DNA from: a virus
Length of the DNA stretch: 64,000 nt
Reading direction: 5' to 3' (one strand)
IMG/VR virus record: IMGVR_UViG_3300037264_006630
Span: 96,001 to 160,000 of that record
A model generated the notes under the pieces. The model saw only the letters and a list, made by a program, of their open reading frames with translations, had not been told where the DNA came from and did no database searches. Each line of letters begins with the position of its first letter. Position 1 is the stretch's first letter. Both the position numbers and the translations under genes were made by a program. Of the stretch, positions 2,901 through 19,581 are shown in pieces.

Positions 2901-3125
2901 GCCGAGGAGTATTGCACGGCCGGTGCCACTTCACGCGCATCAGCAGACGCACGAACGACGGCCGGCTTCCGTCCGGAGTGTCGTCGGCGACGACACTCGC
3001 TCCGGATTCGGTCGCGGAACCGACGATCCGGAGGCGGATCCACCTGCGACCACGCTGCGTTGGCCGCCGCCTGTCGCCGTGGCCGACACCCCTGTGTCCG
3101 CAACGCCACACTCCCGGCGGGTCAG
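2901..3125 (-). promoter_or_regulatory. sigma54 promoter module M1 (two UAS palindromes, operator, -24/-12)
   Basis: TGGCACCGGCCGTGCA (-24/-12 at 2914-2927); operator 2930-2955; TGT-N11-ACA palindromes at 2978-2996 and 3071-3089. Confidence 0.85.
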
Positions 3126-3403
3126 CCGACGATGACCGGATAGGTGGCGTTGTGCGCGAGACCGTTGTGCCAGGCGGCCTTGGCCCTGGCTGCTTCGAGG
3201 TCCCAGGCCCACGTCTCGACGTTGAACGCGAGCAGGATCGCGGGCGTGTCGGTCGAGACGAAGTAGACCAGGGTGTCCCGGTTGGTGAAGTTGAGGACGT
3301 AGCCGCGCGCGAGCGCCGCGTCCTGGACGGCGGCGCGGCGGGCCTTCTTCGAGCCACGCCGCGGCACGGTGGCGACGGCGGCTCTGATCTCGTCGGCGGT
3401 CAC
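3122..3403 (-). CDS. Hypothetical protein
   Basis: Coupled operon gene. Confidence 0.6.
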   Translation of the reverse strand: MTADEIRAAVATVPRRGSKKARRAAVQDAALARGYVLNFTNRDTLVYFVSTDTPAILLAFNVETWAWDLEAARAKAAWHNGLAHNATYPVIVG

Positions 3404-3723
3404 TTGTCACCCAGGGCGTCGAGCCGGGCAGCCTCGGCCTCGTGGAGTGCGGTGGTGGCGGCGCGGTACGCTGCCAGGGCACGGTCCAGGCGGACGCGCT
3501 CGGGCGGGTGGAAGGCGGAGCGGTCGAAGGTCAGCCGGCTCCGCTGGACCATGGCGATGTCGCCGCCGCGCGACACGCACAGGTAGTGATTGCGCACGTA
3601 TACGCGCGCGCCGATCGACGGCTTGGACCAGCGCCTCGCCGGGAAGCCCTCGGCTGCGAGGGCGGCGACGAGGCGGTCGGCGTGCCCCTCGGCTTCGGCG
3701 AGGTCGGTCTGGACGGGGCTCAC
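3400..3723 (-). CDS. Hypothetical protein
   Basis: GTG start overlapping upstream stop. Confidence 0.6.
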   Translation of the reverse strand: MSPVQTDLAEAEGHADRLVAALAAEGFPARRWSKPSIGARVYVRNHYLCVSRGGDIAMVQRSRLTFDRSAFHPPERVRLDRALAAYRAATTALHEAEAARLDALGDK

Positions 3724-4001
3724 GACATCCCCATCAGGTTCGCGGCCTCGGCGTCGGTGAGGATGATGTCGGTGCCGCAGTCCAGGTAGGCGTGCTTGCC
3801 GGTGCTCGGTTGCCAGCAATAGAGCAGGCGGGCCCCGGTGCGCGTGGTGAACGGGACCTCGGTGCCGCCGCACGCCGGAATCCAGGGGCCCTGCGCCTTG
3901 CGCGCATCGGCCGCGTCGAGCAACTCGACGAGCGTACGCTGGCGCGGTCCGAAAAAGGGGTACGGCTCAATCGGGCGGTCGGGGGTGGCGTCGGTCATCA
4001 T
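3720..4001 (-). CDS. Hypothetical protein (PFTTRTGARLLYCWQPSTGKHAYLD)
   Basis: ATG 14 nt after the -12 GC of M2. Confidence 0.7.
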   Translation of the reverse strand: MMTDATPDRPIEPYPFFGPRQRTLVELLDAADARKAQGPWIPACGGTEVPFTTRTGARLLYCWQPSTGKHAYLDCGTDIILTDAEAANLMGMS

Positions 4002-4056
4002 GGTCGAGATGCTTTGCACGCGGTGTGCCGTTCGTGCGCCTAATGATGTGTACGAT
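4002..4056 (-). promoter_or_regulatory. sigma54 promoter module M2 with operator
   Basis: CGGCACACCGCGTGCA (4016-4029); operator TTCGTGCG-N10-TGTACGAT at 4031-4056. Confidence 0.75.
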
Positions 4057-4484
4057 CAGGCGGCCAGAAGCTCCGCGCTCTCATCGTCCCAGGTGCGCTC
4101 GAGGTCCCACGCCGCCGAGCCGCGGACCCAGGTGTTGCCGCGGTGGTCGGCGCGCGCGGCCAGCGCGGTCACCAGCAGCTCGTGTCGGTCGGCATCCCGC
4201 AGCCGCGCCCGCTCGACCCGACGGCGGATCGTGCGGCGGTTGTCGGCCCGGAAGACCTCGACGGAGCGGATGTACTCCGACATGAAGTCACTCTCGCCGC
4301 GGAGCAGCCGCTCCATCTCGCGCACTGCGGCGCCCGCGGTCGGGAAGCGGCCGGTGGTGATGATCCGGAAGCCGGCGGGAACGACCGCGTAGGAGGTGTC
4401 CCGTAGCCAGGGCCGATCGACCACCGTCACCGCGACGCAGTGGTAGTTGCCGGTCCCGAACCCGGTGGTGATCGAGCCGCTCAC
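4056..4484 (-). CDS. Hypothetical protein
   Basis: GTG coupled to upstream stop. Confidence 0.6.
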   Translation of the reverse strand: MSGSITTGFGTGNYHCVAVTVVDRPWLRDTSYAVVPAGFRIITTGRFPTAGAAVREMERLLRGESDFMSEYIRSVEVFRADNRRTIRRRVERARLRDADRHELLVTALAARADHRGNTWVRGSAAWDLERTWDDESAELLAA

Positions 4485-4858
4485 TTGGCCCGTTCCGCGC
4501 GGAAGCGGCAGTCCCGGGCCCGGTCCGCCCACGAGGTGAGACCGGTCTCCGTCGCCGCCCGATCGAGCCGCGCGGCCAGCGCCACCAGCTCGTCGCGGCT
4601 GGCGCTGTAGTCGCGCCGCGACGCCTGCTCGTACCACTCGTTGACGCCGAGCTCACCCAGGGTCGCCGCGTAGGCCAAGCCCTCGCTGCGGGTGATGACC
4701 TCGCCCCGCTCGTCCCGCAGGAGGTCGCCGAACTCGTCGGTCGTCTCGCTTGGCGCCAGCGCCGCCTCCATCATCGCGGCCCCGTGCCAGTCGGCCGAGG
4801 TGCGGCGCTCGATGTGGAGGGAGCGGAGCTGGGCCAGCGTCAGGAGCGTCGTGGTCAT
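4481..4858 (-). CDS. Hypothetical protein, first gene of M3
   Basis: ATG 13 nt after the -12 GC. Confidence 0.65.
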   Translation of the reverse strand: MTTTLLTLAQLRSLHIERRTSADWHGAAMMEAALAPSETTDEFGDLLRDERGEVITRSEGLAYAATLGELGVNEWYEQASRRDYSASRDELVALAARLDRAATETGLTSWADRARDCRFRAERAK

Positions 4859-4912
4859 GCCTCGATCATAAGCACGCGGCGTGCCGTTCGTGCGCTTGTT
4901 CATGTGCGCGAA
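4859..4912 (-). promoter_or_regulatory. sigma54 promoter module M3 with operator (divergent from M4)
   Basis: CGGCACGCCGCGTGCT (4872-4885); operator 4887-4912. Confidence 0.8.
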
Positions 4913-5027
4913 ATCTGGTCGCAGGTCCGCTGTTCGGGCTCGATCTCCCCTTGATTCATGCCGCCCCACCCCATCTCGAGGCGTGTAGATCCGAGCGGTT
5001 GCATCCCAGGTGTGACGGCGTGGCGCG

Positions 5028-5219
5028 CTGACTGCGGCGGCGACAGGCGCGCGCCAACCCGGCGTGACTGCCAGTCTTTACGCCGCCGGACGCGGCCCCT
5101 ACGGTCGAAATCGTGGCGAGTGTCGTCGGTGGTGACAGGGGCAGCGCCGGCGTGGGTGTGGTGTTTCGTGCGCTTGGACGTGCGCACGAAGTGGCACGTA
5201 GCATGCTCTACATCCAGAC
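5028..5219 (+). promoter_or_regulatory. sigma54 promoter module M4
   Basis: UAS at 5120-5138 and degenerate UAS at 5028-5046; operator TTCGTGCG-N10-CGCACGAA at 5165-5190; TGGCACGTAGCATGCT (GG 5193, GC 5205); ATG 13 nt later. Confidence 0.85.
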
Positions 5220-5762
5220 ATGACCCCGACGACGAGCCCCGACGGCCAGTACCTCTCCACCGCGGACCGTTGCCGCCTTGCCCTCAAGACCGCTGGCTTC
5301 AAGTCCAAGCAGGTCACGGTCCGGTCGGACGGCGGCTCCATCTACGTCACCATCCGGACCGCGGACGTGTCGATCACCGCAGTCACCGCGATCGTCAACG
5401 AGTTCGTGGTGGTCTACCGCGACCACGGCCCCTCGCAGGAGATCCTCACCGGCGGCACCAGCGTCTACACCAAGTACGCCCCGGAGGCGCTGGCCCCGCT
5501 CAAGGCCGAGATCACCGCCATCCTCATGGCGACCCCGGCCCGCATCGCCGTCGCCATCGGCCCGCACCATGCGTACTGGTCGCCGGACTACGGCACGACC
5601 GCAACCCCCGATCGCAACTCGACCATCCACACCACGACCGCGATGGTCGTCGGCTCGCAGATGACGCTGCGCGCCAGCGGCCTGGACTTCGGCGCCGAGC
5701 AGCTCGCCACCGACCTGCTCGCCCGCGGGATCAAGACCCTGGCGCCGGAGGTGACGGCGTGA
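5220..5762 (+). CDS. Hypothetical protein
   Basis: Leaderless start after M4; strong GC3 bias. Confidence 0.75.
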   Translation: MTPTTSPDGQYLSTADRCRLALKTAGFKSKQVTVRSDGGSIYVTIRTADVSITAVTAIVNEFVVVYRDHGPSQEILTGGTSVYTKYAPEALAPLKAEITAILMATPARIAVAIGPHHAYWSPDYGTTATPDRNSTIHTTTAMVVGSQMTLRASGLDFGAEQLATDLLARGIKTLAPEVTA

Positions 5763-5986
5763 TCGCCCAACTCGGCCTCTGCCCCGCGTCCACCGCTCGC
5801 CTCGAGCCGATCGAGGAAGCCTTCCCGCTCTGGTCCACCACCTGGCACAAGGGCGACCTCTGCACCGTCGTCGGTCACGACTCCGAGTCGTACCCGGAGC
5901 CGATGGTCAGGGTCGTCTTCGACGACGGCCGACCGGGGCCCGGCATCTTCAAGCGCACCGAGCTCGGCTACCGGGCGGGGTCGTGA
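5759..5986 (+). CDS. Small hypothetical protein (possible SH3-like barrel)
   Basis: GTGA coupling; KGDLCTVV..VRVVFDDG. Confidence 0.55.
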   Translation: MIAQLGLCPASTARLEPIEEAFPLWSTTWHKGDLCTVVGHDSESYPEPMVRVVFDDGRPGPGIFKRTELGYRAGS

Positions 5987-6330
5987 AGATCACCCTGACC
6001 CTGTGGTCGTGCTGGTGCGGCGACGGCAACCACGACCGCAACGGGTCGACCTGCTCTCGCACCCCTGACGGCTCCACCGTCGCCGTGACGGTGCCCTACG
6101 ATGACGCCCCGCACGCCGAGGCCGATACCGCCTGCCCCGTCTGCAAGGCCCCGGCGCCCATCCTGGTGGCCGGTACGGGCAAGCGGATCGTCAACGATCG
6201 AGAGGTCCACGCCGACGGGTACCACCTCGCCTGCAAGGCTCATCTGGGGCTGCTCGTCGCCAAGCCTGACACCCTGTTCGGACTCGAGGAGGATCGCCGC
6301 GTCCTCCACGGTCGCCCCCGCGTCTACTGA
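5983..6330 (+). CDS. Zn-finger-like hypothetical protein
   Basis: CWC and CPVC...HLAC motifs; coupled start. Confidence 0.65.
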   Translation: MKITLTLWSCWCGDGNHDRNGSTCSRTPDGSTVAVTVPYDDAPHAEADTACPVCKAPAPILVAGTGKRIVNDREVHADGYHLACKAHLGLLVAKPDTLFGLEEDRRVLHGRPRVY

Positions 6331-6331
6331 C

Positions 6332-6360
6332 CTGGCTCGTTCCTCGCAACAAGATCCCGC
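6332..6360 (+). promoter_or_regulatory. sigma54 promoter M5 (core only)
   Basis: TGGCTCGTTCCTCGCA (GG 6334, GC 6346); ATG 13 nt later; no operator or UAS seen. Confidence 0.6.
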
Positions 6361-6921
6361 ATGACCACCGACCCAGCCTCTCTCGTGATCGGCATCCGCT
6401 CCCTCAAGGTCCAGCGCCGGCTCTCCGAGGAGACCCTGTGCTTCTCGGCCACCATCGTGGTCAACGGCAAGGCCGCCGGCGAGGCGACCAACCGGGGCTC
6501 CGGCGGGGCGACCGACATCCACATCAAGTCGCCCGAGCTACGCGAGGCAGCGGGCGCGTGGGCTCAAGCCTACTACGCCAACCCCGCGGCCGACGCCGAC
6601 CCCGAGCGGCGCGAACTGGCCGAGGGCAAGGGCGCCGCGTGGTGTCTCGAGCTCTACATCGACTACCTCGTCTACGCTGAGGACGGGCGCCGCGAGGCCG
6701 AGAAGGAAGCCAAGAAGCTCAAGCAGATCGACGCGAAGAACGGCGCCTTGTTCGCGGCCAAAGGCTTCGGCTGGATGGTGCGGCTCACCGGCGACGGCGT
6801 CATCCGCTGGATTCCCATGCGAGAGGCTGCCGAGCAAGCCAGCGTCGTGGCGCAGACCGTCGCCAAGCACCAGATCGCGACCGTCAAGGAGGTCGTCCTC
6901 CTGTCCACCGCGCCGGTCTGA
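6361..6921 (+). CDS. Conserved phage/plasmid hypothetical protein (SEETLCFSAT..NGK..NRGSGG)
   Basis: Recognisable N-terminal motif of an uncharacterised phage family. Confidence 0.7.
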   Translation: MTTDPASLVIGIRSLKVQRRLSEETLCFSATIVVNGKAAGEATNRGSGGATDIHIKSPELREAAGAWAQAYYANPAADADPERRELAEGKGAAWCLELYIDYLVYAEDGRREAEKEAKKLKQIDAKNGALFAAKGFGWMVRLTGDGVIRWIPMREAAEQASVVAQTVAKHQIATVKEVVLLSTAPV

Positions 6922-7140
6922 CCCGCGGGAGTGTGGCGCTGGGGATACGGGGTGTCAGCCACGACGACAGATGATGGCCAAGTCAACGCAACCGCTGGCT
7001 GGAATGCTCGTCGAGCGCACGGAATCGCCGCGGATCTAGGCCGAGTGTCGTCGCCGACGACACTCCGGACTCGGGTCCCCCGCGTTTCGTGCGCCTGAAC
7101 GTACGCGCGAACCGGCACGCCGACTGCAATACACCTCGAC
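6918..7140 (+). promoter_or_regulatory. sigma54 promoter module M6, colinear homologue of M1
   Basis: UAS at 6952-6970 and 7045-7063; operator 7086-7111; CGGCACGCCGACTGCA (GG 7114, GC 7126); ATG 13 nt later. Confidence 0.85.
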
Positions 7141-7530
7141 ATGCCCACGACGACCAACGAGTTCGAGACGATCACCACGGTCACCAGCGCGGACGGCCTG
7201 ACCACCATCGTCTACCGGCCCCCGAACACCGACAGCGAGCGGGCTCGCCGCGCGATGGCATGCACCCGTCTCAACTGGAACGTCACCCGCAACGCCCCGG
7301 GCGGCTGGGTCACCGCCAACGTCACCGTCTCCACCGCGGGCGCCAAGGGCTTCCGGGTCGGCTGGTGCGGCAACCGCGGCAACGGCTGGGGCAAGAACTA
7401 CGGCCGGTGCTTCAAGCTCGAGGCCGACGCGCTCACCTTCGCCGGCATCAAGGCCAGCCAGATGTTCTCGTGGGCCGAGCGCCAGGAGGGCAAGCCCTCG
7501 CGCCCCATCGTCCTCGCCACCATGCACTGA
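7141..7530 (+). CDS. Hypothetical protein
   Basis: Leaderless start after M6. Confidence 0.7.
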   Translation: MPTTTNEFETITTVTSADGLTTIVYRPPNTDSERARRAMACTRLNWNVTRNAPGGWVTANVTVSTAGAKGFRVGWCGNRGNGWGKNYGRCFKLEADALTFAGIKASQMFSWAERQEGKPSRPIVLATMH

Positions 7531-7543
7531 CCGCCGCTTCCCG

Positions 7544-7583
7544 TTGACCTCGCCAGTTTCGTGCATATCATGGAGTGTATGAA
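7544..7583 (+). promoter_or_regulatory. sigma70-type promoter S2 with operator
   Basis: TTGACC-N16-TATCAT-N7-ATG; operator TTCGTGCA-N10-TGTATGAA at 7558-7583. Confidence 0.75.
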
Positions 7584-8949
7584 CATGACGCCCGACGCCG
7601 TTTACGTCCCCGCGCACGCGCTCGCGTCGATCCGCGCCGCGCTCGACAAGGCCACCAACGCCGACCGCCGCCACGCCACGCGCCTCAACCTCGCGGTTCC
7701 GGCCGCGCCGGTTCTCACCGTCGGTGAGGAGCGCCAGGTCCGCGAGTGCTGCGCCTGCCGCCACCAGGCCACCGACATCACGCAGTGGATGTCGGCCTGC
7801 TGCACCGCGCCGGCCCGCCTGCTCACCCTGGTCCCCGTGACGATCAGCGCGCCGCGCCCGACCTGCGGCGCCTGGGAGTTGCTCGCGGTGGTCGAGCGCC
7901 AGCCGGCCGACTTCGAGGGCAAGCCATCGCCGAACCTCCTGCGCCGCGTCCCCGGCTCGACCGAAGATCTAGATCTCGGGCGCTGGCGCACCGGCGACGC
8001 CACCCACTGCGACCACTGCGACGTGGATCGCCGCCGGAACGAGACCTTCCTGGTGCTCTCGCTCGAGAACGGCGAGATCAAGCAGGTCGGCCGCCAGTGC
8101 CTCGCCGCCTTCCTCGGCGACCAGTCCTACGAGTCGATCATCCGTCGCCTCGCCTGGCGCGAGTTGCTCACCGACGGTGGTGACGACGGCGAGGGCGGGT
8201 ACGGTGGTGGTGGTCGCTGGGGCGAGCCGGCGCCTGACATCGAGACGGTGCTGGCGCTCACCGCGACGGTCATCCGCAACGACGGCTGGCTGTCGAAGAC
8301 CGCCGCGCGCGAGCGCTTCGACGGGATCCGGGCGACCGCGGACCAGGTCTACTCGCTGCTCAACCCGCCGCGCGAGGGTGAGCAGCTCCGCGAGTGGCGC
8401 AAGGAGATCGTCCGCCTGGCCCCGCAGCCGACCGACATGGAGCACGCGACGGCGGCGCTCACCTGGGTTCGCGACATGGCCCCGACCTCGGACTACGACT
8501 GGTCGATCCACACCGCCGGCCGGCTCACCCACGTCGAGCACTTCGGGATCGTCTGTTCGATCGTTCCGGCCTACGACCGCGTGATCGGTCGCGAGATCGA
8601 GAAGCGCACCCGGCGCGCCGCAGTACCGGCCTCGGTCCACGTCGGTGCCGTCGGCGAGAAGCTCTCCGCCACCGGCATCTGCGAGAGCGCCCGCGCCGTT
8701 CCCGGCGACCAGTGGGGCACCCGGACTGTGATCACGATCGTGGCCGCCGATGGCGCGGTGGTGCAGTGGTGGAAGTCCGGGATCGTCGATGAGGTCATCG
8801 CGGGCCGCACCGTCACCATCACCGGCAAGGTGAAGAGCCACGGCCAGTACGACGGCCGCGCGATCACCACTCTCACCCGCTGCAAGCTGGTGGTGCTGCC
8901 CGAGGCAGCGCCCGACTGCGGCGGCGAGCAGACGGCGGTGGCGTCGTGA
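7579..8949 (+). CDS. Phage protein with Zn-binding motifs and C-terminal OB-fold-like domain
   Basis: CCAC and CDHC...KQVGRQCL motifs; C-terminal HVGAVGEK..ITGKVKSHGQYDG..TTLTRCK. Confidence 0.7.
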   Translation: MNMTPDAVYVPAHALASIRAALDKATNADRRHATRLNLAVPAAPVLTVGEERQVRECCACRHQATDITQWMSACCTAPARLLTLVPVTISAPRPTCGAWELLAVVERQPADFEGKPSPNLLRRVPGSTEDLDLGRWRTGDATHCDHCDVDRRRNETFLVLSLENGEIKQVGRQCLAAFLGDQSYESIIRRLAWRELLTDGGDDGEGGYGGGGRWGEPAPDIETVLALTATVIRNDGWLSKTAARERFDGIRATADQVYSLLNPPREGEQLREWRKEIVRLAPQPTDMEHATAALTWVRDMAPTSDYDWSIHTAGRLTHVEHFGIVCSIVPAYDRVIGREIEKRTRRAAVPASVHVGAVGEKLSATGICESARAVPGDQWGTRTVITIVAADGAVVQWWKSGIVDEVIAGRTVTITGKVKSHGQYDGRAITTLTRCKLVVLPEAAPDCGGEQTAVAS

Positions 8950-9188
8950 GCTCGGCCCTGTTGCAGCCGCGAGCCGGCATCATCGTCGTGCGGGTCGGGC
9001 AGCTCGTCGTGGCCGGCAACGACTCCTACCAACTCGTCGCCCTGGGCGGCGTCTACGGCGAGGAGGTGCGGCTCTTGGGCAACAAGCCCTACCGGAAGTC
9101 CCGCGCCAAGCCGCTCGGCTGGCGTCGGACCGCGCCACGTCGGCGCACCTGTCGTCCGTGCCGACAGCCGGATGCCAAGGCCGCGTAG
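8946..9188 (+). CDS. Possible small protein
   Basis: GTGA-coupled ORF; its 3' end overlaps a UAS. Confidence 0.4.
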   Translation: MSSALLQPRAGIIVVRVGQLVVAGNDSYQLVALGGVYGEEVRLLGNKPYRKSRAKPLGWRRTAPRRRTCRPCRQPDAKAA

Positions 9189-9326
9189 CGGCAAGAGATA
9201 CCGTCGTGAATCCACAGAGAACACAGGTTGATCACAGGGCACTGTCGTCGCGGACGACACTCCGGACCGCCGCGCGGGACGAGATCGTGCGCACTTGGAG
9301 GCGCGTGAACTTGGCACCGCTCATGC
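9149..9326 (+). promoter_or_regulatory. sigma54 promoter module M7 (leadered, SD downstream)
   Basis: UAS at 9149-9167 and 9242-9260; operator ATCGTGCG-N10-CGCGTGAA at 9284-9309; TGGCACCGCTCATGCT (GG 9313, GC 9325). Confidence 0.8.
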
Positions 9327-9382
9327 TCTACACCGGGCTGTTCGGTCGTCGAGCCGCCAACGTCTACAGGAGGACACGAGCC

Positions 9383-9883
9383 ATGATCTGGGTACACCGC
9401 GACCTACTGCCACCCGCCGTACATGTCATCGTCTCGGGCTGCACTGCGCGTCACGGCGCTGCGGCCGGTATCGCCACCACGTGGGCATCCCAGATCGTGC
9501 AGCGGCGAGGCGCCGACCCGCAGGCGCACATTTTCGCGGGCATGGCGCCCGACGAGCCCATCACCACGATCGGCGTGGCGCGCGGCGTCTCCGCGACGGC
9601 GGCGGCAGGCCGGGTCGTCACGGTGCTGCCGGGCGAGCGCGACCCCGCCGACCGCTCGTGGCTCCGCGAGCTGGCCGCGATGGCGCCGGCGTCCCCCGTC
9701 GGACTCGCGATCGTCGCGATCGTCGACGCCTGGGATTGGGCGGATCGCACGCCCCACGACACCTGCACCGAGTCCGAGGCGCGGGCGCTGGGCCTGCACA
9801 TCGGCTACCCAGGCGAGCGGCACGTCGCCTACCCGGAGGCGATGGGCGTCCGCCTGATCCCGGACCATCCGCCGCAGTGCTGA
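9383..9883 (+). CDS. Hypothetical protein, weak resemblance to a degenerate DHH phosphoesterase
   Basis: AGGAGG SD; VIVSGC..HGAAAG and IVDAWDW loosely echo DHH-family segments, but catalytic motifs are absent. Confidence 0.55.
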   Translation: MIWVHRDLLPPAVHVIVSGCTARHGAAAGIATTWASQIVQRRGADPQAHIFAGMAPDEPITTIGVARGVSATAAAGRVVTVLPGERDPADRSWLRELAAMAPASPVGLAIVAIVDAWDWADRTPHDTCTESEARALGLHIGYPGERHVAYPEAMGVRLIPDHPPQC

Positions 9884-9911
9884 CCGACCCCGACCCCGAG
9901 GAGATCCTGAC

Positions 9912-10376
9912 ATGAGCTACACCTACACCGTCGCGTCCTACCAGGCCGCTGTCGCGCTGTCGCGGCAGATCGTCGATACCGAGCGTGAGGCAGCCGACGC
10001 CGTCAGCGCCGAGCTCGTGGATGCGACGTACGCGACTCGCTACGCTGACAGCCACGCGCTCTATGCCCGCGTCTCGACGTGGCTCGGCCGGTCGCTCGGC
10101 GCCCGCCCCATGCGCGACACCGTCGACGCGATGGTGCGCGAGGATCCGCGATGCGCCCGCTACGCCGTCGCGCTCGCCGACGCGCGCGAGTTCGCGCGAC
10201 ACAGCGACGCCGACATCGGCAGGGGCGCGCACCTGGCGTACCTGGTCGTGCTCCGACTCGCGCGCCGCAACGCCGCGTGGCAGCCGGTCGCGGATGCGTG
10301 GCCGGATCACCTGCGAGAGCGTGGCCCGGTCGGCGAGCGCGACCCGGGCGCAGGCACCGGACACCGCGAGCGCTGA
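9912..10376 (+). CDS. Hypothetical protein
   Basis: GAGGAG SD. Confidence 0.65.
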   Translation: MSYTYTVASYQAAVALSRQIVDTEREAADAVSAELVDATYATRYADSHALYARVSTWLGRSLGARPMRDTVDAMVREDPRCARYAVALADAREFARHSDADIGRGAHLAYLVVLRLARRNAAWQPVADAWPDHLRERGPVGERDPGAGTGHRER

Positions 10377-10510
10377 CCGGCTATCGACGCCGGCGCGAGG
10401 CTGACGGCCTCGCAGCGCACCACACAGCGGCACCCGCCATCTGGCGCAGGCGCTGAGATCGACATGAGCACACCAGCGCCGGCATGACCGGCGCACGAAA
10501 GGCTACGACC

Positions 10511-10984: not shown

Positions 10985-11169
10985 CCTCCGACGTCGACGC
11001 CCTCGCCATCGCCCGCACCCACCGCATCGACGCCGGCACCCCGGCCGACGAGGGCGAGGCGGCGGACCTGCGGGTCATCGAGCGGATCGCCGCGCTCGAT
11101 CTCGTCGAGCCCGCGCCTGGCTGGATCGATCGCGCCGTCGCGCGGTGGCGCAACACCACCCGCAAGTAG
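10981..11169 (+). CDS. Small hypothetical protein
   Basis: GTGA coupling. Confidence 0.55.
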   Translation: MTSDVDALAIARTHRIDAGTPADEGEAADLRVIERIAALDLVEPAPGWIDRAVARWRNTTRK

Positions 11170-11206
11170 CCATCAACCGTCACCGACAACGACAGGAAAC
11201 CAAACG

Positions 11207-11620
11207 ATGACCACTCAGACCATCGCTCCCGCCCGCCTCTGGCCGTCCTCCGATCACCGCTGGGAGATCCCCGCGCGCCCGTCGTCCAACCCCGACGCGG
11301 CAGTGTACGACATGCTCGTCGACGTCCTCCACGACATCGACCTCATCGCCGCGCAGTGCCCCGACGGCGCCGCGACCGGGTGGCTCGCGCTGCGCACGAC
11401 GGTCCGCGATCGGATCGACGTCGTGGCGCACGCGCCGACCGCGCCGGTGCAGCGCTCGCTCACCAGCGGCGACCGCGTCCGGCGAACCGACGTCGCCGAC
11501 GTGCGCGGCAGGATCACCAGCACCCGCACCAGCGGTGGCGTGTCGTACGCGGTCGTCCGGTACGACGGCGGCATGAACACGGCCGAGTTGCCGACGGCCC
11601 TGTTGGAGCGCGCGTCGTGA
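11207..11620 (+). CDS. Hypothetical protein (C-terminal SH3-like segment)
   Basis: AGGA SD; GDRVRR..GRITS..YAVVRYDGG. Confidence 0.6.
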   Translation: MTTQTIAPARLWPSSDHRWEIPARPSSNPDAAVYDMLVDVLHDIDLIAAQCPDGAATGWLALRTTVRDRIDVVAHAPTAPVQRSLTSGDRVRRTDVADVRGRITSTRTSGGVSYAVVRYDGGMNTAELPTALLERAS

Positions 11621-11991
11621 CGCTGGTGGCACGGACGGAATGGGAGGCGCTCATCCGAGCCGAGGGGATCGATCCGCCGCCGATGGGAGACGGGTTCACG
11701 CGCTGGGCGCCGACGGGCGACCCGGCGCCGGGTGCGCTGTCGCGCCTCGTGTCGACCGGCCTCATCGTGCGCTCGGATGGCACCGCCGTCATGGTCACGG
11801 CGCTGCCGACCATGGAGGACCACGGCATGCTCAAGGCTCACACGGGCGCCGGGGCATTCGCTCGCATGTACCCCGGTCGCGCGACGCCGCTGGACGCGAT
11901 CGGCGCGCTGGGATGGGACGCCTACTGCGAGCTGCTCATCACCGGACCGCCCTCGCGGACGCCGCCGGGTGGCGAACCACGCAAAAAGTAG
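11617..11991 (+). CDS. Hypothetical protein
   Basis: GTGA coupling. Confidence 0.55.
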   Translation: MTLVARTEWEALIRAEGIDPPPMGDGFTRWAPTGDPAPGALSRLVSTGLIVRSDGTAVMVTALPTMEDHGMLKAHTGAGAFARMYPGRATPLDAIGALGWDAYCELLITGPPSRTPPGGEPRKK

Positions 11992-11994
11992 CGG

Positions 11995-12093
11995 GTGTCG
12001 TCGGCGACTACAGGCCGGCGACCACTCCGGAACCAGACTTCGCACACCTGCACGAGCGCACGAACCGGCACACCCCGTGCAGTACCAGGCACC
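11995..12093 (+). promoter_or_regulatory. sigma54 promoter module M8
   Basis: UAS GTGTCGTCGGCGACTACAG at 11995-12013; operator 12039-12064; CGGCACACCCCGTGCA (GG 12067, GC 12079); ATG 13 nt later. Confidence 0.8.
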
Positions 12094-13029
12094 ATGATCA
12101 TCACCGTCCAGTTCGCGTTCACCTGCCGTATCTGTGGTCGTCGCGGTGCAGCGGGGTCGCAGGCCGAGTGGAGCAAGGCCGGGGGCACGGCGCACACGAG
12201 CTGCGCCGCCAAGTCGGCCCCGGCGCCCAAGGCGAAGTCCGCACGCAAGCCGGCTGCCCCGCGCCCGGCACCGCGGGTTCCGCAGGCCGGTGAGATCGAG
12301 ATCTCGCGCAAGGGCGACCGCCACGGCCGCTACACCGTTGGCGAGACGATCTACGCGGCCAAGGTCAACGGCGGTGGTGGCGATGGCCACTACTGGACGG
12401 TGGTCGCCGAGGGCTTCTCGCGCGCGAACGAGGACATGGGTCACTACGACGACTTCTGTTGGGCGACCGTGCGCCCGGCGACCGATGCCGAGGTCGCGCC
12501 GGTGGCGGCGCGCCGCGCGGCGGCGGATGCCGCGAAGTCCGCTGCGGCGGTGGCCGCGGGTGGGATGGTCGCGCTGGCGCGCGTCGGCCAGGCGGTCACC
12601 GAAGGCACCTGCCTGTCGCTGGTGGCCGTCGAGGCGCACCGCGTCGTGATGGCGGGCGCCTCCAAGATCTCGACGGTCAAGGACCGCTCGACCACGACCA
12701 CCTGGTTCCGCACTGTCGACGGTACGCTGGTGCGCGAGTCGCACGGCTACGACGACCATCGCCAGTGCGCGTACATCACGGCCGAGGCGCTGCTCGCGTC
12801 GGTGGCCGCCCAGGTCGACGCGGACGCCGATGACCTGCCGCTGGCCGACTCGCTGCGCAACGTCGCCAGCCGCTACAGCTACCCGGTCCACCGCGCCCGC
12901 GTCTGGCTCGCCGCCTCGCGCGGCGAGACGGTCCCGGTGGAGGTCGTGCCGCCGACCCTCGAGCCGCGCGAGTTGGAGACGGACGCCGATGTCCTGGCGA
13001 TGTCGGCCCAGATGGGAGCCTCCCTGTGA
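12094..13029 (+). CDS. Hypothetical protein with N-terminal Zn knuckle (CRICG...HTSC)
   Basis: Start defined by M8 spacing. Confidence 0.7.
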   Translation: MIITVQFAFTCRICGRRGAAGSQAEWSKAGGTAHTSCAAKSAPAPKAKSARKPAAPRPAPRVPQAGEIEISRKGDRHGRYTVGETIYAAKVNGGGGDGHYWTVVAEGFSRANEDMGHYDDFCWATVRPATDAEVAPVAARRAAADAAKSAAAVAAGGMVALARVGQAVTEGTCLSLVAVEAHRVVMAGASKISTVKDRSTTTTWFRTVDGTLVRESHGYDDHRQCAYITAEALLASVAAQVDADADDLPLADSLRNVASRYSYPVHRARVWLAASRGETVPVEVVPPTLEPRELETDADVLAMSAQMGASL

Positions 13030-13445
13030 CGATCACGGTCGACGACTCCACCGTCCACTGCGGCGCCATCCGGCACCTCTGCGCGACCAAGCGTACCGCA
13101 CAGATCACGGCGGCCACGCTCGCGCTCCGTGACGCTGGGTGGACCGTCGTTGGTCCCGCGTCTGGCCTCGGCTACCGCCGCCCCCTCGCGCTGCCTGGCG
13201 AGCGCATGTGCCAGCCGCTCGACGGGTCGCTCGCTGACCAGCGCGCACAGGGCTTCACCGTGTGGCGCCACGACGGCTCCATCAACCCTGACACCGGTGT
13301 TGGCCCGCGCACCGCCGCGCGAGCGATCACGATCGACGCCTGCGCCGGTCTGCCTCTGCTCGTGACCGAGGAGCGCGGCGATGTCGCCGAGGCGCGCGAG
13401 ATCATCGAGTGGTACATCGGGTCGATCGTGCAGGCCAACCCGTGA
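13026..13445 (+). CDS. Hypothetical protein
   Basis: Coupled operon gene. Confidence 0.6.
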   Translation: MTITVDDSTVHCGAIRHLCATKRTAQITAATLALRDAGWTVVGPASGLGYRRPLALPGERMCQPLDGSLADQRAQGFTVWRHDGSINPDTGVGPRTAARAITIDACAGLPLLVTEERGDVAEAREIIEWYIGSIVQANP

Positions 13446-14032
13446 CCGTCGGCCGCCTCAAGATCCTCCGCATCGAGGTGGATGGGCACTTCCGCGGCTC
13501 GTCGGATGTGCCCCGCCCCTGGGTGGCGCAGATCGACGGGCCGGACGCTCGCTGGGGCCTGGCTCGCACGTTCATTCAGTGCCTGCGCGACTGGCGTGGC
13601 GCTCACCGCGCGAACAGCGGCAACCTCTACGGCGTGGTCGCGGCGTTCCCGCTCCACGACGGCAAGCTCTACGAGGTGTGCCGCCTGCGCGGCAAGTCGA
13701 GCAAGCGCCACGTCGCGCGCGAGTTCTGGCGCGTGGTCGACGGCAAGATGGTCGAGCTCGAGCCGAGCGAGGCGCTCGCTCTTGCCGATGGCTACGATGG
13801 CCCCGCGGTCGAGCACACGGTCGCCGACGGGACCAAGGTGGCGCTCGTCACCGGGCTCGGGACCCCGACGCCGCTCGGGTTCGTGATGGCGGACGGCCGG
13901 CGCCTGTTCCGGCTGCGCGACGGCCACATCCACGAGGTCATGACCGACACCGGCCGCGAGCTCCTCGCGGTGCGAGACGGCGATGTCGCGTCCATCTCGG
14001 ACATGGAGGCGTTGGCGTGGCTGATGCGATGA
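13442..14032 (+). CDS. Hypothetical protein upstream of IbrA-like gene
   Basis: GTGA coupling on both sides. Confidence 0.65.
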   Translation: MTVGRLKILRIEVDGHFRGSSDVPRPWVAQIDGPDARWGLARTFIQCLRDWRGAHRANSGNLYGVVAAFPLHDGKLYEVCRLRGKSSKRHVAREFWRVVDGKMVELEPSEALALADGYDGPAVEHTVADGTKVALVTGLGTPTPLGFVMADGRRLFRLRDGHIHEVMTDTGRELLAVRDGDVASISDMEALAWLMR

Positions 14033-15243
14033 AGCGACCGATCGGGATCGACGTCCTCGCCGCCGCTCGCCAGCGGATCGCGTGGGTGTTCGACGCCTTC
14101 CCGCGGATCTACCTGTCCGGCCCCAGCGGCAAGGACTCGTCGGTGATGATGCACCTGGTCTGCCAGGAGGCGCGTCGCCGCGGTCGGCGGGTGGGCGTGC
14201 TGTTCCTCGATCTCGAGGCGCAGTACCGCCTCACCATCGACCACGTCCGCGACATGTTCGCGCTCTACGCCGACGTGATCGATCCGTTCTGGGTCGCCCT
14301 GCCGCTCAACCTGCGCAACGCGGTGAGCCAGATCGCCCCGTTCTGGACGTGCTGGGATCCTGCGGCCGAGCCGCTCTGGGTGCGGCCCCGGGAGCCGGGC
14401 AGCATCGCCGACCCCGAGCGCTTCCCGTTCTACCGCCACGCGATGGAGTTCGAGGAGTTCGTCGAGGGGTTCGGCAACTGGTACGCGGGCGACGAGGCGT
14501 GCGCGTGCTTCGTCGGCATCCGCGCCAACGAGTCGCTCAACCGCTGGCGGGCGATCGTCCGGCGCCGGAAGTCGCGGCTCGAGGGCCGCGCCTACACCAC
14601 CTGGCGCGGTGACCAGCTCGTGAACGTCTACCCGATCTACGACTGGCGCACCGAGGATATCTGGACCTACGTCGGCCGCGAGCGCGCGGCCTACAACCGC
14701 ATCTACGACGGCATGCACCAGGCCGGGATGTCGATCCACCAGATGCGGATCTGCCAGCCCTACGGGGATGACCAGCGCCGGAGTTTGAACCTTTACCACG
14801 TCCTCGAGCCCCTCACCTGGACCCGCGTCGTCGCGCGCGTGGCCGGCGCCAACCAGGGCGCGCTCTACGCCGGCAAGCGCGGCAACATCCTCGGCAACGG
14901 CAACATCGTGCTGCCCGCCGGCCACACCTGGCAGAGCTTCGTGGAGTTCCTGCTCGCCTCGATGCCGCAGGCCGAGGCAGACAACTACCGCGACAAGATC
15001 GCGGTGTTCATCCAGTGGTGGCGCAACCGGTACGGCCTCGAGATGACCGAGGACGACGACCCCGATCTGGTCGGCACGTACAAGCGCCAGCCGACGTGGA
15101 AGCGGGTGGCCAAGGTCATCCTCAAGAACGACTTTCTCTGCAAGGGTCTGAGCTTCTCGCAGCAACGCAGCGAGCCGAGCTCGTACGACCGGTACAAGAA
15201 GCTGATGCGCGACCGCCGCGCGAGATGGGGCATCTACGCATGA
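14029..15243 (+). CDS. ibrA: IbrA-like PAPS-reductase + DUF3440 protein
   Basis: SGPSGKDSS PP-loop, VGIRANESLNRW, YPIYDWRTEDIW, MRICQPYGDDQR, TW..VVARVAGAN, KNDFLCKGLSF. Confidence 0.85.
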   Translation: MKRPIGIDVLAAARQRIAWVFDAFPRIYLSGPSGKDSSVMMHLVCQEARRRGRRVGVLFLDLEAQYRLTIDHVRDMFALYADVIDPFWVALPLNLRNAVSQIAPFWTCWDPAAEPLWVRPREPGSIADPERFPFYRHAMEFEEFVEGFGNWYAGDEACACFVGIRANESLNRWRAIVRRRKSRLEGRAYTTWRGDQLVNVYPIYDWRTEDIWTYVGRERAAYNRIYDGMHQAGMSIHQMRICQPYGDDQRRSLNLYHVLEPLTWTRVVARVAGANQGALYAGKRGNILGNGNIVLPAGHTWQSFVEFLLASMPQAEADNYRDKIAVFIQWWRNRYGLEMTEDDDPDLVGTYKRQPTWKRVAKVILKNDFLCKGLSFSQQRSEPSSYDRYKKLMRDRRARWGIYA

Positions 15244-15614
15244 CCGACGACAAGGACAAGAACGGCATCCCGCTGGACCTCGTGCGCGCTGCGCGCCGCG
15301 AGGAGTCGCTCCGCGGACGGGTCCACCTGTGCAGCACCCGCCGCGAGCCGCTCCTGGTCGATGGGCAGGTGGTCGGCTTCGTCACTCCGCGCCAGGTCGG
15401 CGACGCCTGGCGGCACGGCCCGATCTACGTGGCCCCGGGCTTCCGCAGTCGGGGACTCGTGGCCGCCTACTACGCCTCCCACCCGGAGCGGATCTGCGTG
15501 GCGTTCGTCGCCGACAGTAACCGCTCGTCGCGGTCTGCGCACGTCGCGGCTGGGTTCGCCAACTGGCGCCGCGGCAAGGACGGCTGGTTCATGCGGCGGG
15601 AGGCGCAGCCGTGA
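15240..15614 (+). CDS. GNAT-fold acetyltransferase-like protein
   Basis: IYVAPGFRSRGL (motif A) and NRSSRSAHVAAGF (motif B). Confidence 0.6.
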   Translation: MTDDKDKNGIPLDLVRAARREESLRGRVHLCSTRREPLLVDGQVVGFVTPRQVGDAWRHGPIYVAPGFRSRGLVAAYYASHPERICVAFVADSNRSSRSAHVAAGFANWRRGKDGWFMRREAQP

Positions 15615-16240
15615 TCGAGGCCCTGACCGAGCAGCTCTGCGCCGAGCTCGCGCAGCTCGACGAGGACGCGCGGATCGACGCACTCAACGCCGTGCGCACC
15701 GCCCTGCACGCGGTGTCGCCGCTGCGCGCCGAGCCGGTCGACCTGGTGCTGTGGGTCCGGGCCGAGCAGGTCCGCGGCAACGACTACAACCCCAACAGCG
15801 TAGCGCCGCCCGAGATGCGGCTCCTCCAGCACAGCGTCCTGGCCAACGGCTTCACCATGCCGATCGTCACCCATGAGATCGACGACGGCGTGACCGAGGT
15901 GGTCGATGGGTTCCACCGCCACCGCATCGGCAAGGACACCCCGGAGATCCGCACGCGCTGTCACGCCCGCCTGCCGGTCACCCGGATCCGCGCCGACCGC
16001 GCCGACACCGGCGCCCGCATCGCCGCCACCATCGAGCACAACCGCGCCCGCGGTGAGCATCAGGTCGGCCGCATGAGCGAGATCGTCCGCATGCTGTACC
16101 AGCAGGGCTGGAGCGAGACGCGGATCATGAAGGAGTTGGGGATGGAGGCCGACGAAGTGTTGCGCCTCAAGCAGATGACCGGGCTCGCTGACCTGTTCGC
16201 GGGCCGTGAATTCTCCGAGGCATGGGAGCCGAACGAATGA
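15611..16240 (+). CDS. ibrB: IbrB-like ParB/Srx-domain protein
   Basis: NDYNPNSVAPPEMRLL, VVDGFHR, RIAATIEHNRARGEH, C-terminal HTH. Confidence 0.85.
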   Translation: MIEALTEQLCAELAQLDEDARIDALNAVRTALHAVSPLRAEPVDLVLWVRAEQVRGNDYNPNSVAPPEMRLLQHSVLANGFTMPIVTHEIDDGVTEVVDGFHRHRIGKDTPEIRTRCHARLPVTRIRADRADTGARIAATIEHNRARGEHQVGRMSEIVRMLYQQGWSETRIMKELGMEADEVLRLKQMTGLADLFAGREFSEAWEPNE

Positions 16241-16461
16241 CCGACCGCATCCGCCACCTCACCGTCCTGCTCGAGCAGGACACCCGCACCGACGATCTCG
16301 AACCGATCATCGCCGCCATCTCCCACATCCGCGGCGTCGCCAAGGTGACGCCCGGCCAGCCGGTGAACATGAGTGACTACATCGCCCGCGAGACCGCCAA
16401 GCGCGAACTCGGCGTGCAGCTCTTGGCGATCGTCTTCCCGAAGCAGGAGCCGCGGTCGTGA
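16237..16461 (+). CDS. Small hypothetical protein
   Basis: ATGA coupling. Confidence 0.6.
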   Translation: MTDRIRHLTVLLEQDTRTDDLEPIIAAISHIRGVAKVTPGQPVNMSDYIARETAKRELGVQLLAIVFPKQEPRS

Positions 16462-16652
16462 GCGGCAAGATCGGAGTCGGTTCAGTGGTCCTCTTGAATG
16501 GCGCCCATTGGACCGTGGAGGAGGTGTTCAACGCGCACGGACACGATGCGGCGCACTTGGTCCGGGACGCGGGCGGCCAGCCGCAGCGTGCGCTGGCCGT
16601 GCCGCTGGATGGGTTGGCCGCCGTCGATGTCGCCGTCCCGGTCAAGGAGTGA
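16458..16652 (+). CDS. Small hypothetical protein (DUF2158-like small barrel)
   Basis: GVGSVVLLNGAHWTVEEV. Confidence 0.5.
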   Translation: MSGKIGVGSVVLLNGAHWTVEEVFNAHGHDAAHLVRDAGGQPQRALAVPLDGLAAVDVAVPVKE

Positions 16653-16654
16653 CC

Positions 16655-16993
16655 ATGCCCGAGCCGATCAGCCTAACCCCGCCGGCCGCCGCCTGCGCCA
16701 TCCTCACCATCACCACCGACCGCGGCACCATCGAGGCGTGGGTCGTCTTCGACGATCTCCACACCGCGCAGGCACGCTTCGTCGAAGCGCCGACCTGGCC
16801 CGAGGCCACGAAGTACATCATGCAGGCGGACGGCAACACCTCCGCGGTCGCGGGTCGCGGGCGCCGCTGGTACGTCGTCCGCGACAGCGGCGAGGTCACG
16901 CCCTGGCACCTGGCCCCGGCCGAGCTCACCTACGCCGCCGACCTGCGCCGCGCCTGCGAGGCCGCGCTGGTCATGAACGGCTCGCACTCGTGA
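16655..16993 (+). CDS. Hypothetical protein
   Basis: AAGGAG SD. Confidence 0.6.
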   Translation: MPEPISLTPPAAACAILTITTDRGTIEAWVVFDDLHTAQARFVEAPTWPEATKYIMQADGNTSAVAGRGRRWYVVRDSGEVTPWHLAPAELTYAADLRRACEAALVMNGSHS

Positions 16994-17011
16994 TGCGCCA
17001 CCTCGTCACGC

Positions 17012-17205
17012 CTGTCGTCGGCGCCGACACCTGCACCGCAAGCCCGCAGGCCGGCACGTCGTTCGAGGGACTGGCGAGATCGCGCACGGTCACCATCCGT
17101 TCCGCGCTGTCGCCGCCAGCGACACCCGGCCCCGATCGCCCCCAGCATCCGCGCCACCTTCCGTCCACCGCCAACCTGGCACCCCTCGTGCTCTACACCT
17201 CCACC
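17012..17205 (+). promoter_or_regulatory. sigma54 promoter module M9
   Basis: UAS at 17012-17030 and 17107-17125; TGGCACCCCTCGTGCT (GG 17178, GC 17190); ATG 14 nt later; operator degenerate. Confidence 0.75.
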
Positions 17206-17364
17206 ATGACCAACGCCTCGACCGACACCAGCACGCCGCCCGCGGAGCCCACGCCCGCTGCCACCGAGCGGCGGCCGAGCCCGCCCTTCCCGTTCATCGA
17301 CATCAGCGGGGCCGCCGAAGCCAGGGCCGCCGTGGGTCAGCCCGTCCCGCCCGGAGTCAACTGA
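17206..17364 (+). CDS. Small Pro-rich protein
   Basis: Leaderless start after M9. Confidence 0.5.
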   Translation: MTNASTDTSTPPAEPTPAATERRPSPPFPFIDISGAAEARAAVGQPVPPGVN

Positions 17365-17365
17365 G

Positions 17366-17635
17366 ATGCCCGAGTCCAAGCCCAAGAAGCTCCGCGCCGA
17401 GGTCGCCGCTCGCGCAGCCCACGGCACCCGCCAGGCCATCCCCGTCATCACCGATGTGGCGCCGGTGCCGAAGCGCCACCTGACCCTGCCGGACGTCGTT
17501 CGCGAGGTCACCCACCGCGGTCGGTTCACGGTGACCCAGATCGCCGGCGCCATCGGCGTCTCGGCCGGGTCAGTCCGGTTCTCTGAGATCGCCACCGAGG
17601 TCGGCAAGGTCCCCGGCTACCGGCCGCTCCGGTAA
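17366..17635 (+). CDS. Small HTH DNA-binding protein
   Basis: FTVTQIAGAIGVSAGSVR helix-turn-helix pattern. Confidence 0.55.
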   Translation: MPESKPKKLRAEVAARAAHGTRQAIPVITDVAPVPKRHLTLPDVVREVTHRGRFTVTQIAGAIGVSAGSVRFSEIATEVGKVPGYRPLR

Positions 17636-17788
17636 CCGCTCCCCGTTCACGCGCTCCAGCCTGGCCTTCCCCAGCGGGCGCCCGGGGCTGTCGATGGGAC
17701 CTCACCTGTCGATAGCACCCCTCACCCGGGTTTGGTAGCTGACCTCGGAGGTCAGACTGGAACGCGCGAGCAGCCAAGGATTACGATC

Positions 17789-18070
17789 ATGCCCACCACC
17801 AAGACCCTCACTCACCCGACGATCCACCTGAACGGCTCCGGCCGCCAGCACCTCCTGGACGGCTACAGCAACGCGCGCGACAAGGTCCGCGAGCTCGAGT
17901 CCGCGCTCATGGCGGCGGCGCCCAACGGCCGCGACTACTACCCGCAGGGCGAGTCCGCGATCGGCCGTGCCATCGCCGAGCACTGCTCGCGCCTGGACCG
18001 CCTCCGGGCGCTCGATGCCGAGTTGGCCGAGCTCCAGCAGGCCGTGGCCGACGCGTCGGGTCGCCGGTGA
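17789..18070 (+). CDS. Conserved phage hypothetical protein (PTIHLNG...APNGRDYYPQG)
   Basis: Recognisable motif of an uncharacterised phage family. Confidence 0.7.
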   Translation: MPTTKTLTHPTIHLNGSGRQHLLDGYSNARDKVRELESALMAAAPNGRDYYPQGESAIGRAIAEHCSRLDRLRALDAELAELQQAVADASGRR

Positions 18071-18273
18071 TGTCGGCCCTGTTCTACCGGCTGCACCAGA
18101 CCGGACGCGGCGCGCGCGACTTCACCGAGCGGTACGAGGCGATCGCGCAGTGGCGGCACGCAACCACCCAGGTGGAGGACGGCGAGAGCACCAGCCTCTA
18201 CGCGGTCCGGGAGAGCAAGAACGAGGAGGAGCTCCTGGCTCACTACCAGCCGGTCCCGCACCGGATGGTGTAG
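18067..18273 (+). CDS. Small hypothetical protein
   Basis: Coupled to upstream stop. Confidence 0.55.
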   Translation: MMSALFYRLHQTGRGARDFTERYEAIAQWRHATTQVEDGESTSLYAVRESKNEEELLAHYQPVPHRMV

Positions 18274-18291
18274 CTATGCAACTTCTGCGGA

Positions 18292-18389
18292 CTGGAGTCG
18301 GCGACGACAGTTGAGCCGCTACTCCGGACCAGCCTTCGCGCACATGAACGTGCGCACGAACGGCACGCCGCGTGCTGTAGTATCCGGGC
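18292..18389 (+). promoter_or_regulatory. sigma54 promoter module M10
   Basis: UAS variant (TGG-N11-ACA) at 18292-18310; operator TTCGCGCA-N10-CGCACGAA at 18335-18360; CGGCACGCCGCGTGCT (GG 18362, GC 18374); ATG 14 nt later. Confidence 0.8.
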
Positions 18390-19544: not shown

Positions 19545-19581
19545 CCATCGCACGTTTCGTGCGTATGGTCGTGTGTATGAA
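19541..19581 (+). promoter_or_regulatory. sigma70-type promoter S3 with operator
   Basis: TTGACC-N17-TATGGT-N7-ATG; operator TTCGTGCG-N10-TGTATGAA at 19556-19581. Confidence 0.75.

Follow-up and report, generated by a model that had tools for sequence, protein, structure and literature searches.

Class B promoter cassettes resembling sigma-54 promoters, and a 26-bp operator common to two promoter classes, in a phage of a probable myxobacterial host

Class B cassettes in the phage genome

The window analyzed here is the 64-kb stretch comprising bases 96001-160000 of the 184,943-bp IMG/VR virus genome IMGVR_UViG_3300037264_006630, a phage genome whose GC content is 69% and whose ends overlap by 127 bp. 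The subject is a set of intergenic cassettes with the core GGCMC-N6-TGCW (class B), which resemble sigma-54 promoters, and an operator that they share with the leaderless sigma-70-type promoters (class A) of the same phage. Positions are given in the numbering of the 64-kb stretch unless marked as genome, which refers to the 184,943-bp record. Approximately 15 class B cassettes were detected genome-wide. They form two clusters, one at 72-79 kb and the other at 97-114.4 kb (genome), and 10 of the 15 were located inside the window. An initial annotation of the window had listed ten GG-N10-GC cores and assigned them to sigma-54. The coordinates and strands of its nine GGCAC-N6-TGC cores were all correct, and nine of its ten cores belong to such cassettes; one further cassette (GG at 1058, minus strand) was absent from its list.

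The cassette is about 190 bp in length. From the 5' end it begins with a distal copy of a 17-bp palindrome, TGTCG-N7-CGACA (that is, TGT-N11-ACA), followed by a proximal copy, which often has ACTCCGGAC downstream, and then by a 26-bp inverted repeat (IR), TTCRYGCG-N10-CGCRYGAA. Some cassettes carry one palindrome and others two. A spacer of 1-2 nt separates the IR from the core, T-A(-C) is found 3-5 nt past the core, and an ATG 27-28 nt after the first G of the core closes the cassette. This distance to the ATG was observed at nine of the ten initially listed sites, the exception being 9313. The IR ends 1-2 nt before the GG at eight of those ten sites and in 13 cassettes genome-wide. In these 13 cassettes it starts 27-29 nt upstream of the GG with its centre at about -42.5 from the ATG, and the spacing between IR and core varies by only 1 bp despite diverged flanks.

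Among the 15 cores, G1, G2, C3, C5, T12, G13, C14 and W15 are invariant, the GG-N10-GC spacing is exact, and the GG is preceded by Y and the GC followed by W. Twelve cores read GGCAC and three read GGCCC. The right half of the three GGCCC variants shows no compensating change, and no covariation between the halves was found, so that a symmetric GCAC/GTGC operator is disfavoured; the conservation of the core is that of the asymmetric sigma-54 consensus. A purine is located 12 nt past the GC in 13 of the 15 cassettes.

The geometry of the palindromes was as the initial annotation had described. The proximal palindrome is centred -60 to -64 from the GG in seven window cassettes (-70 in one copy outside the window). 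Five window cassettes have a distal copy 92-95 bp above the proximal one, the distance being exactly 93 bp in those with cores at 2914, 7114 and 9313 (M1, M6 and M7), and the two copies are thus about nine helical turns apart. The genome contains 11 copies of the exact sequence TGTCG-N7-CGACA, where 0.37 would be expected, and each copy lies upstream of a cassette.

The bare core is barely enriched and unconvincing alone: GGCAC-N6-TGC was found 10 times in the window against 4.8 +/- 2.3 expected, with nine copies in 2900-18400, and GGCMC-N6-TGC 36 times in the genome against 27.7. The composite is convincing. According to 100 Markov-2 simulations of the whole genome, a core with an ATG at +27/28 was observed 16 times against 0.6 expected, a core with the IR (up to 3 mismatches) just upstream 13 times against 0.01, and core, IR and ATG together 12 times against 0 in the simulations.

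As had also been claimed, the cores lie directly upstream of gene units. The class B sites are intergenic, keep a fixed distance to the start codon and are correctly oriented for each downstream gene, and they include two divergent pairs. A consensus scan of window 1-20000 detected no sigma-70 -35/-10 boxes at class B sites, in agreement with inspection of the hexamers; the same scan detected only three class A promoters.

A 26-bp operator common to class A and class B

The IR is present in 34 copies within 2 mismatches in the genome, of which about 22 do not adjoin a GGCAC core. These ~22 copies are located in leaderless class A promoters of the arrangement TTGACN, 17-18 nt, TAnnnT, 7 nt, ATG, in which the IR extends from about -21 to +5, its right arm containing the start codon (GCGCATGAA). 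Among the 15 promoters fitting the strict pattern TTGAC-N17-20-TAnnnT-N6-8-ATG, 14 carry the IR over -10/+1; the single IR-free promoter, at genome 180675, heads the operon containing dnaN. Class A promoters are found across the whole genome, including upstream of the structural gene block. The same dyad thus occupies one fixed register in class A, over -10/+1, and another in class B, at about -55 to -29. The class A arrangement, a genome-wide dyad overlapping -10/+1 of consensus promoters, matches the pattern of phage repressor operators.

Within 1 mismatch, approximately 25 copies of the IR are present in the 185-kb phage against 1-12 per candidate host genome of 5-9 Mb; with 0-6 copies of the reversed pattern as control, these host genomes show no enrichment of the IR. 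The protein binding the IR is therefore most likely encoded by the phage. The only clear candidate, for the IR and the palindromes alike, is a stand-alone GerE/LuxR-type helix-turn-helix (HTH) protein of 96 aa (E 6.5e-12; genome 67889-68179, minus strand) encoded in a class A operon; no convincing DNA-binding family was detected among the small proteins of the class B units and of the IR-free promoter. The initial annotation had missed the IR and considered a host signal as a possible controller. Since this operator is common to both promoter classes, a phage DNA-binding protein, and not only a host signal, is predicted to be a main controller.

The GerE/LuxR-type gene adjoins a gene for a 510-aa protein with a weak match to GHKL ATPases (the pair spans genome 67889-69766, minus strand). 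Both belong to the operon of the class A promoter at genome 71394 (minus strand).

Candidate host and its sigma-54 equipment

The phage dnaN gene (genome 181117-182220) encodes a sliding clamp that shares 70% identity (579 bits) with the one on the chromosome of the Myxococcota genome G152. It is 59-60% identical to those of three further Myxococcota genomes, including a Kofleriaceae, and 33-45% identical to those of the rest of the phylum. The best solved clamp structures score about 200 bits, and other phage clamps show at most 34% identity. From their PDB codes, we take the species of the structures to be Pseudomonas (~200 bits), E. coli (168), M. tuberculosis (130) and Deinococcus (101). 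The 70% identity to a Myxococcota chromosomal copy suggests that the phage acquired dnaN from its host fairly recently.

Two transposase genes were detected, at genome 18177-19403 and 50001-51137, one of the DDE_Tnp_1 type with a SWIM finger and one of the IS605-type TnpB. The DDE transposase has only two relatives when one genome for each of 185,579 species was searched, one from Kofleriaceae (65%) and one from Polyangia (51%), both Myxococcota; its best matches on plasmids are only 25% identical. TnpB matched at about 40% identity everywhere and did not discriminate among hosts, and the phage capsid protein had no match in 301 Myxococcota genomes. The host is probably a myxobacterium of the Polyangia/Kofleriaceae kind, judging from the two informative genes.

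An actinobacterial host, which would be without sigma-54, was first suspected from the 69% GC, the leaderless TTGACN/TAnnnT promoters and the nearest capsid (30%, Streptomyces phage Kromp). No WhiB gene was found in the phage, which counts against such a host, and together with the 579-bit score of dnaN to a Myxococcota genome, compared with about 200 for the presumed Pseudomonas clamps and 130 for the presumed M. tuberculosis clamp, this led to its rejection.

Sigma-54 is encoded in all three genomes tested from the candidate host lineage, as inferred from dnaN and the transposase. The initial annotation had found no AAA+ bacterial enhancer-binding protein (bEBP) in the window and placed it elsewhere in the genome or in the host. 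Its absence from the window was confirmed and extends to the whole 185-kb genome. Of two genomes of the candidate lineage, one has at least 75 Sigma54_activat genes and the other at least 50. In G152, the canonical promoter YGGCAC-N5-TTGCW occurs 32 times against 5 in the reversed control.

Interpretation of the class B cassettes

The chances appear about even that the phage, infecting a Myxococcota host, uses the class B cassettes as weak sigma-54-type promoters that need an enhancer, depend on a host activator and are gated by an IR-binding phage protein. Compared with the sigma-54 context YTGGCACG-N4-TTGCW, GG and GC are exactly 10 nt apart in 15/15 cores, but T at -15 is absent from all 15. 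The class B sites lack functional -35/-10 boxes, and the palindromes are placed at enhancer-like, in-phase fixed distances from the cores. The sigma-54 assignment of the initial annotation is partly supported, by GGC.C-N6-TGCW in 15/15, by the missing -35/-10 boxes and by the sigma-54 and bEBPs of the candidate host lineage, and is weakened by the missing -15 T.

According to this model, host RNA polymerase with sigma-54 would bind GGCMC-N6-TGCW and start transcription at the ATG or 2-3 nt before it, giving near-leaderless mRNAs. Leaders of 2-3 nt are suggested by the purine 12 nt after the GC and match the leaderless habit of the phage. The non-T at -15 would cause poor binding of the holoenzyme and strict dependence on an upstream-bound factor. 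Opening of the promoter would need an AAA+ activator, and as the phage encodes no bEBP, this would have to be one of the many bEBPs of the host. The upstream sites, bound either by the activator or by an adaptor protein of the phage, would be the TGT-N11-ACA palindromes, which lie some 87 and 180 nt before the start. The 26-bp IR would be the operator of one phage-encoded dimeric protein touching the upstream edge of the holoenzyme. At class A its action would be repression only. At class B it may also repress, as a genome-wide off switch, or it may bend DNA or recruit, producing a switch from sigma-70 to sigma-54.

Several results weigh against a sigma-54 assignment. No sigma-54 was detected in the phage (no match to PF04552, Sigma54_DBD), and no cognate activator is encoded with the regulon: a six-frame search of the 185-kb genome gave no PF00158 match and no GAFTGA/ESELFG motif, and the sole AAA protein of the phage is Cdc48-like. 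The base at -15 is G in 10 cores, C in three and A in two. A GC at -12 would put the start 2-3 nt before the ATG and not on it. The dyad is centred near -42, where class II activators of sigma-70 polymerase classically bind. Only the TTGCW form is enriched in G152, the phage-type GTGCW form being present 38 times and its control 52 times. Across 401 Myxococcota genomes, and also within the five closest ones, neither the palindrome nor palindrome plus core showed enrichment, and no host regulon using the palindrome or the IR was found, in counts that a small activator regulon would escape. The earlier proposal that one bEBP binds the palindromes is an assumption. The host itself is deduced indirectly, from two captured genes (dnaN and the transposase). 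Comparison with relatives gave no support: the nearest relative found, a 184,787-bp phage contig whose PAPS-reductase homologue is 60% identical, has neither IR nor palindrome nor enriched core, and the same applies to all nine loci with a PAPS-reductase homologue. Searches of viral contigs with the exact cassette pattern gave 14 single matches, all attributable to chance and none in a cassette context.

A wider proposal, for the present doubtful, is that one phage protein on the 26-bp operator switches the cell from ~22 leaderless sigma-70 promoters to ~15 sigma-54 promoters. It would block -10/+1 in class A, and in class B it would abut the -24 box of the weak no-T cores and aid a hijacked host bEBP at the phased palindromes. 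If true, this would be a viral sigma-70-to-sigma-54 programme with neither a viral sigma factor nor a viral AAA+ activator.

A different explanation, which we consider unlikely, is that class B consists of activator-dependent promoters of the sigma-70 family (main or extracytoplasmic function sigma factor). An IR-bound phage protein would replace the -35 box and at the same time shut class A, producing an early-to-middle switch with no part for sigma-54. The position of the IR suits this explanation well, since in 13 cassettes it lies 1-2 nt before the core with a spacing variation of 1 bp, and its centre at ~-42.5 from the ATG falls within the -41.5 to -43.5 expected of a class II dyad. Of the 15 strong sigma-70 promoters that are leaderless, 14 have the same IR over -10/+1. 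Where a TAC-type -10 would begin, T and A are conserved, and the 96-aa GerE/LuxR-type HTH protein in a class A operon would be a candidate binder. No bEBP would be required, and the cores are without the -15 T typical of the host. This explanation, however, leaves the invariant GGC.C and TGCW unexplained within a supposed spacer. The putative -10, TACAYC, has no T at -7 in about 12 of the 15 cassettes and would be separated from the ATG by only ~5 nt. An extended -10 does not fit either, since the hexamer in that register is not conserved at its second position. In addition, cassette M9 has the core and both palindromes but no IR, and class A also heads structural genes and is hence not simply early.

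Rather improbable, in our judgement, is that GGCMC-N6-TGCW is read by a phage factor outside the known families, be it an RNA polymerase, a sigma-like protein that has diverged or an adaptor bringing in host polymerase, and that the likeness to sigma-54 is convergent. Most phage proteins are without family, including four of 722-832 aa without match in Pfam, PHROG, PDB or Atlas, and the motif appears confined to this phage, as the exact searches of viral contigs gave chance matches only and the nearest relative is without it. The preferred G at -15 also makes the core more palindromic (GCAC-N5-GTGC), but its halves show no covariation. Sigma70_r2 was not found in the phage. The bipartite asymmetric conservation suits a sigma factor better than a single-subunit polymerase, as promoters of the latter kind run without a gap through +1, and agreement with eight sigma-54 invariants at exact spacing by chance is improbable. 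That the cassettes are not promoters but sites for replication, partition, recombination or nucleoid organisation, intergenic by coincidence, is very improbable: phased palindrome pairs and a genome-wide operator could suit an architectural protein or one resembling ParB, and ParB-family genes do occur in the phage, but the fixed 27-28 nt to the ATG, the correct strand for each gene, the two divergent pairs and the parallel with class A promoters, which have textbook -35/-10 boxes, argue against it.

Comparison with known regulatory systems

Well-studied sigma-54 systems include glnAp2 with NtrC, nifH with NifA, which binds TGT-N10-ACA, and pspA with PspF. In Klebsiella nifH, a non-T at -15 makes a weak promoter that is strictly dependent on its upstream site. 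The phage cores resemble sigma-54 promoters in their GG-N10-GC with GGCAC and TGCW and in the missing -35/-10; the phage dyads lie ~80-180 bp above the start on the same face of the helix, and the base at -15 is a non-T as in Klebsiella nifH. The phage differs from these systems in having fifteen viral copies, no activator gene, near-leaderless mRNAs and T at -15 in 0/15. Its 26-bp dyad, moreover, abuts the -24 box, where integration host factor or nothing usually sits.

In phage Mu, the middle and late promoters are activated by Mor and C through a dyad near -43 and have no -35 box. Like these, the class B cassettes have a dyad near -43 on -35-less promoters, repeated before several phage units. 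Unlike class B, the Mu promoters have a usable sigma-70 -10, no GG/GC boxes and no upstream palindrome pairs, and the activator site in Mu is not also an operator over early promoters. In the temperate actinophages, the stoperators of L5 and the conserved inverted repeats of phiC31 are short operators repeated dozens of times. The likeness lies in one short operator repeated genome-wide at or near promoters; unlike L5 and phiC31, whose hosts are without sigma-54, the present phage uses its operator in two registers and two promoter classes, and its host is predicted to be Gram-negative.

Phage expression programmes are known to employ host sigma-70, phage sigma factors, phage polymerases and sigma appropriation. 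To our knowledge, phage use of sigma-54 has been reported only as isolated promoters. A sigma-54-like promoter was reported for Pseudomonas phage YuA (PMC10914365, citing Ceyssens et al., 2008). In the relevant passage of PMC10914365, YuA is credited with both sigma-70-like and sigma-54-like host promoters, as is suggested here. Unlike the present phage, YuA has in that passage a single sigma-54-like promoter, and an array, a common operator or paired enhancers are not described there (PMC10914365). A literature search of limited coverage found no phage sigma-54 regulon this large, no myxophage sigma-54 promoter and no operator common to sigma-54 and sigma-70 promoters. Sigma-54 promoters and phage operators are already known as kinds; the array and the common operator appear to be new.

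If the sigma-54 assignment is correct, a 15-promoter regulon without its own activator would make accessory and DNA-modification genes answer to a signalling ATPase of the host, whose phylum carries 50-100 such activators per genome. The common operator would then provide a compact coordination of two polymerase holoenzymes, and the cassette would be a ready-made testable part, namely a strictly activator-dependent leaderless expression unit. Even if sigma-54 is not involved, one operator in two fixed registers and two promoter classes is a clean regulatory design.

Individual sites and neighbouring genes

In the window, the cassette absent from the initial list is a GGCCC-N6-TGC variant at 1045..1058 (minus strand), with the IR at 1061-1086 and the ATG at 1030 of a 61-aa open reading frame. 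M1 (2914..2927, minus strand) has the IR at 2930-2955, palindromes at 2979-2995 and 3072-3088 and the ATG at 2900 of an 89-aa DUF1391 protein. M2 (4016..4029, minus strand; ATG at 4001) carries a degenerate IR (4031-4056, 3 mismatches) and no palindrome. M3 (4872..4885, minus strand; IR 4887-4912, ATG 4858) is divergent to M4 (5193..5206, plus strand; IR 5165-5190, ATG 5220), and both use palindromes in common within a 300-bp spacer (5121-5137, proximal to M4, and ~5029-5045, distal).

The remaining sites are on the plus strand. The tenth core of the initial list, M5 (6334..6347), is doubtful: it reads GGCTC-N6-CGC, lies immediately 3' of a stop codon with an ATG at +27, and has no IR and no palindrome within 1 mismatch. 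M6 (7114..7127) has the IR at 7086-7111, palindromes at 7046-7062 and 6953-6969 and the ATG at 7141. M7 (9313..9326), with the IR at 9284-9309 and palindromes at 9243-9259 and 9150-9166, is the sole cassette with a leader, of ~70 nt with AGGAGG before the ATG at 9383, indicating that the phage also uses canonical translation starts behind a class B core. M8 (12067..12080) has the IR at 12039-12064, one palindrome at 11996-12012 and the ATG at 12094. M9 (17178..17191; ATG 17206) keeps the core and two exact palindromes (17013-17029 and 17108-17124) without the IR, which is therefore dispensable for the cassette geometry. M10 (18362..18375) has the IR at 18335-18360, a TGG-variant palindrome at ~18293-18309 and the ATG at 18390 of a 384-aa PAPS-reductase-like protein. 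The five cassettes outside the window are at genome 72161 and 76230 (minus strand) and 76528, 77494 and 78603 (plus strand).

The word ACTCCGGAC after the proximal palindrome was located at approximately 2990-3000, 7057-7067, 9254-9264, 12025-12035 and 18320-18330. In M8 and M10 it is shifted ~13 nt toward the IR with the position of the palindrome unchanged, and it may therefore be a separate element.

Among the class A promoters of the window, the one at 7544..7590 (plus strand) is located inside the class B cluster; it consists of TTGACC, spacer, TATCAT and a leaderless ATG with the IR over -10/+1, and drives 7561-8949. The promoter at 19541..19581 (plus strand) reads TTGACC-N17-TATGGT-N7-ATG with the IR at 19556-19581, and that at 23661..23701 (plus strand; IR 23676-23701) lies upstream of the structural gene block. 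On the minus strand, class A promoters were found at 123..163 (TTGACC at 163, IR 123-148), 58442..58483 (perfect IR, 58442-58467) and 62482..62522 (perfect IR, 62482-62507). Outside the window, a Mom-family DNA-modification protein (genome 87742-88794) is encoded immediately downstream of a class A promoter with its operator, both perfect (genome 87484).

The class B units encode mostly small proteins of no known family. Recognisable products are the DUF1391 protein, a member of phrog_2319 that has its own class A promoter, an IbrA-like PAPS-reductase/DUF3440 protein in the M8 unit (13381-15243), the second PAPS-reductase-like protein (18390-19544) and, outside the window, a DUF6094 methyltransferase fused to an SNF2 helicase. 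By their predicted families these products fit accessory or DNA-modification genes. Near the IbrA-like gene, a class B unit also encodes a protein with a weak ParB_N match, possibly IbrB-like (15611-16240). The IbrA-like, ParB_N and PAPS-reductase genes may form a module for DNA modification or a co-activator of prophage expression.

In the second half of the genome, one of the proteins scanned has DnaB_N and DnaB_C domains and one has LAGLIDADG_3. A 1589-codon open frame (genome 175222-179991) is presumed to be a replicative helicase interrupted by one or more inteins, the assignment of these domain matches to the frame being likewise presumed. In the protein of 335 aa encoded at genome 13420-14427, PCRF is the only class I release factor domain present.

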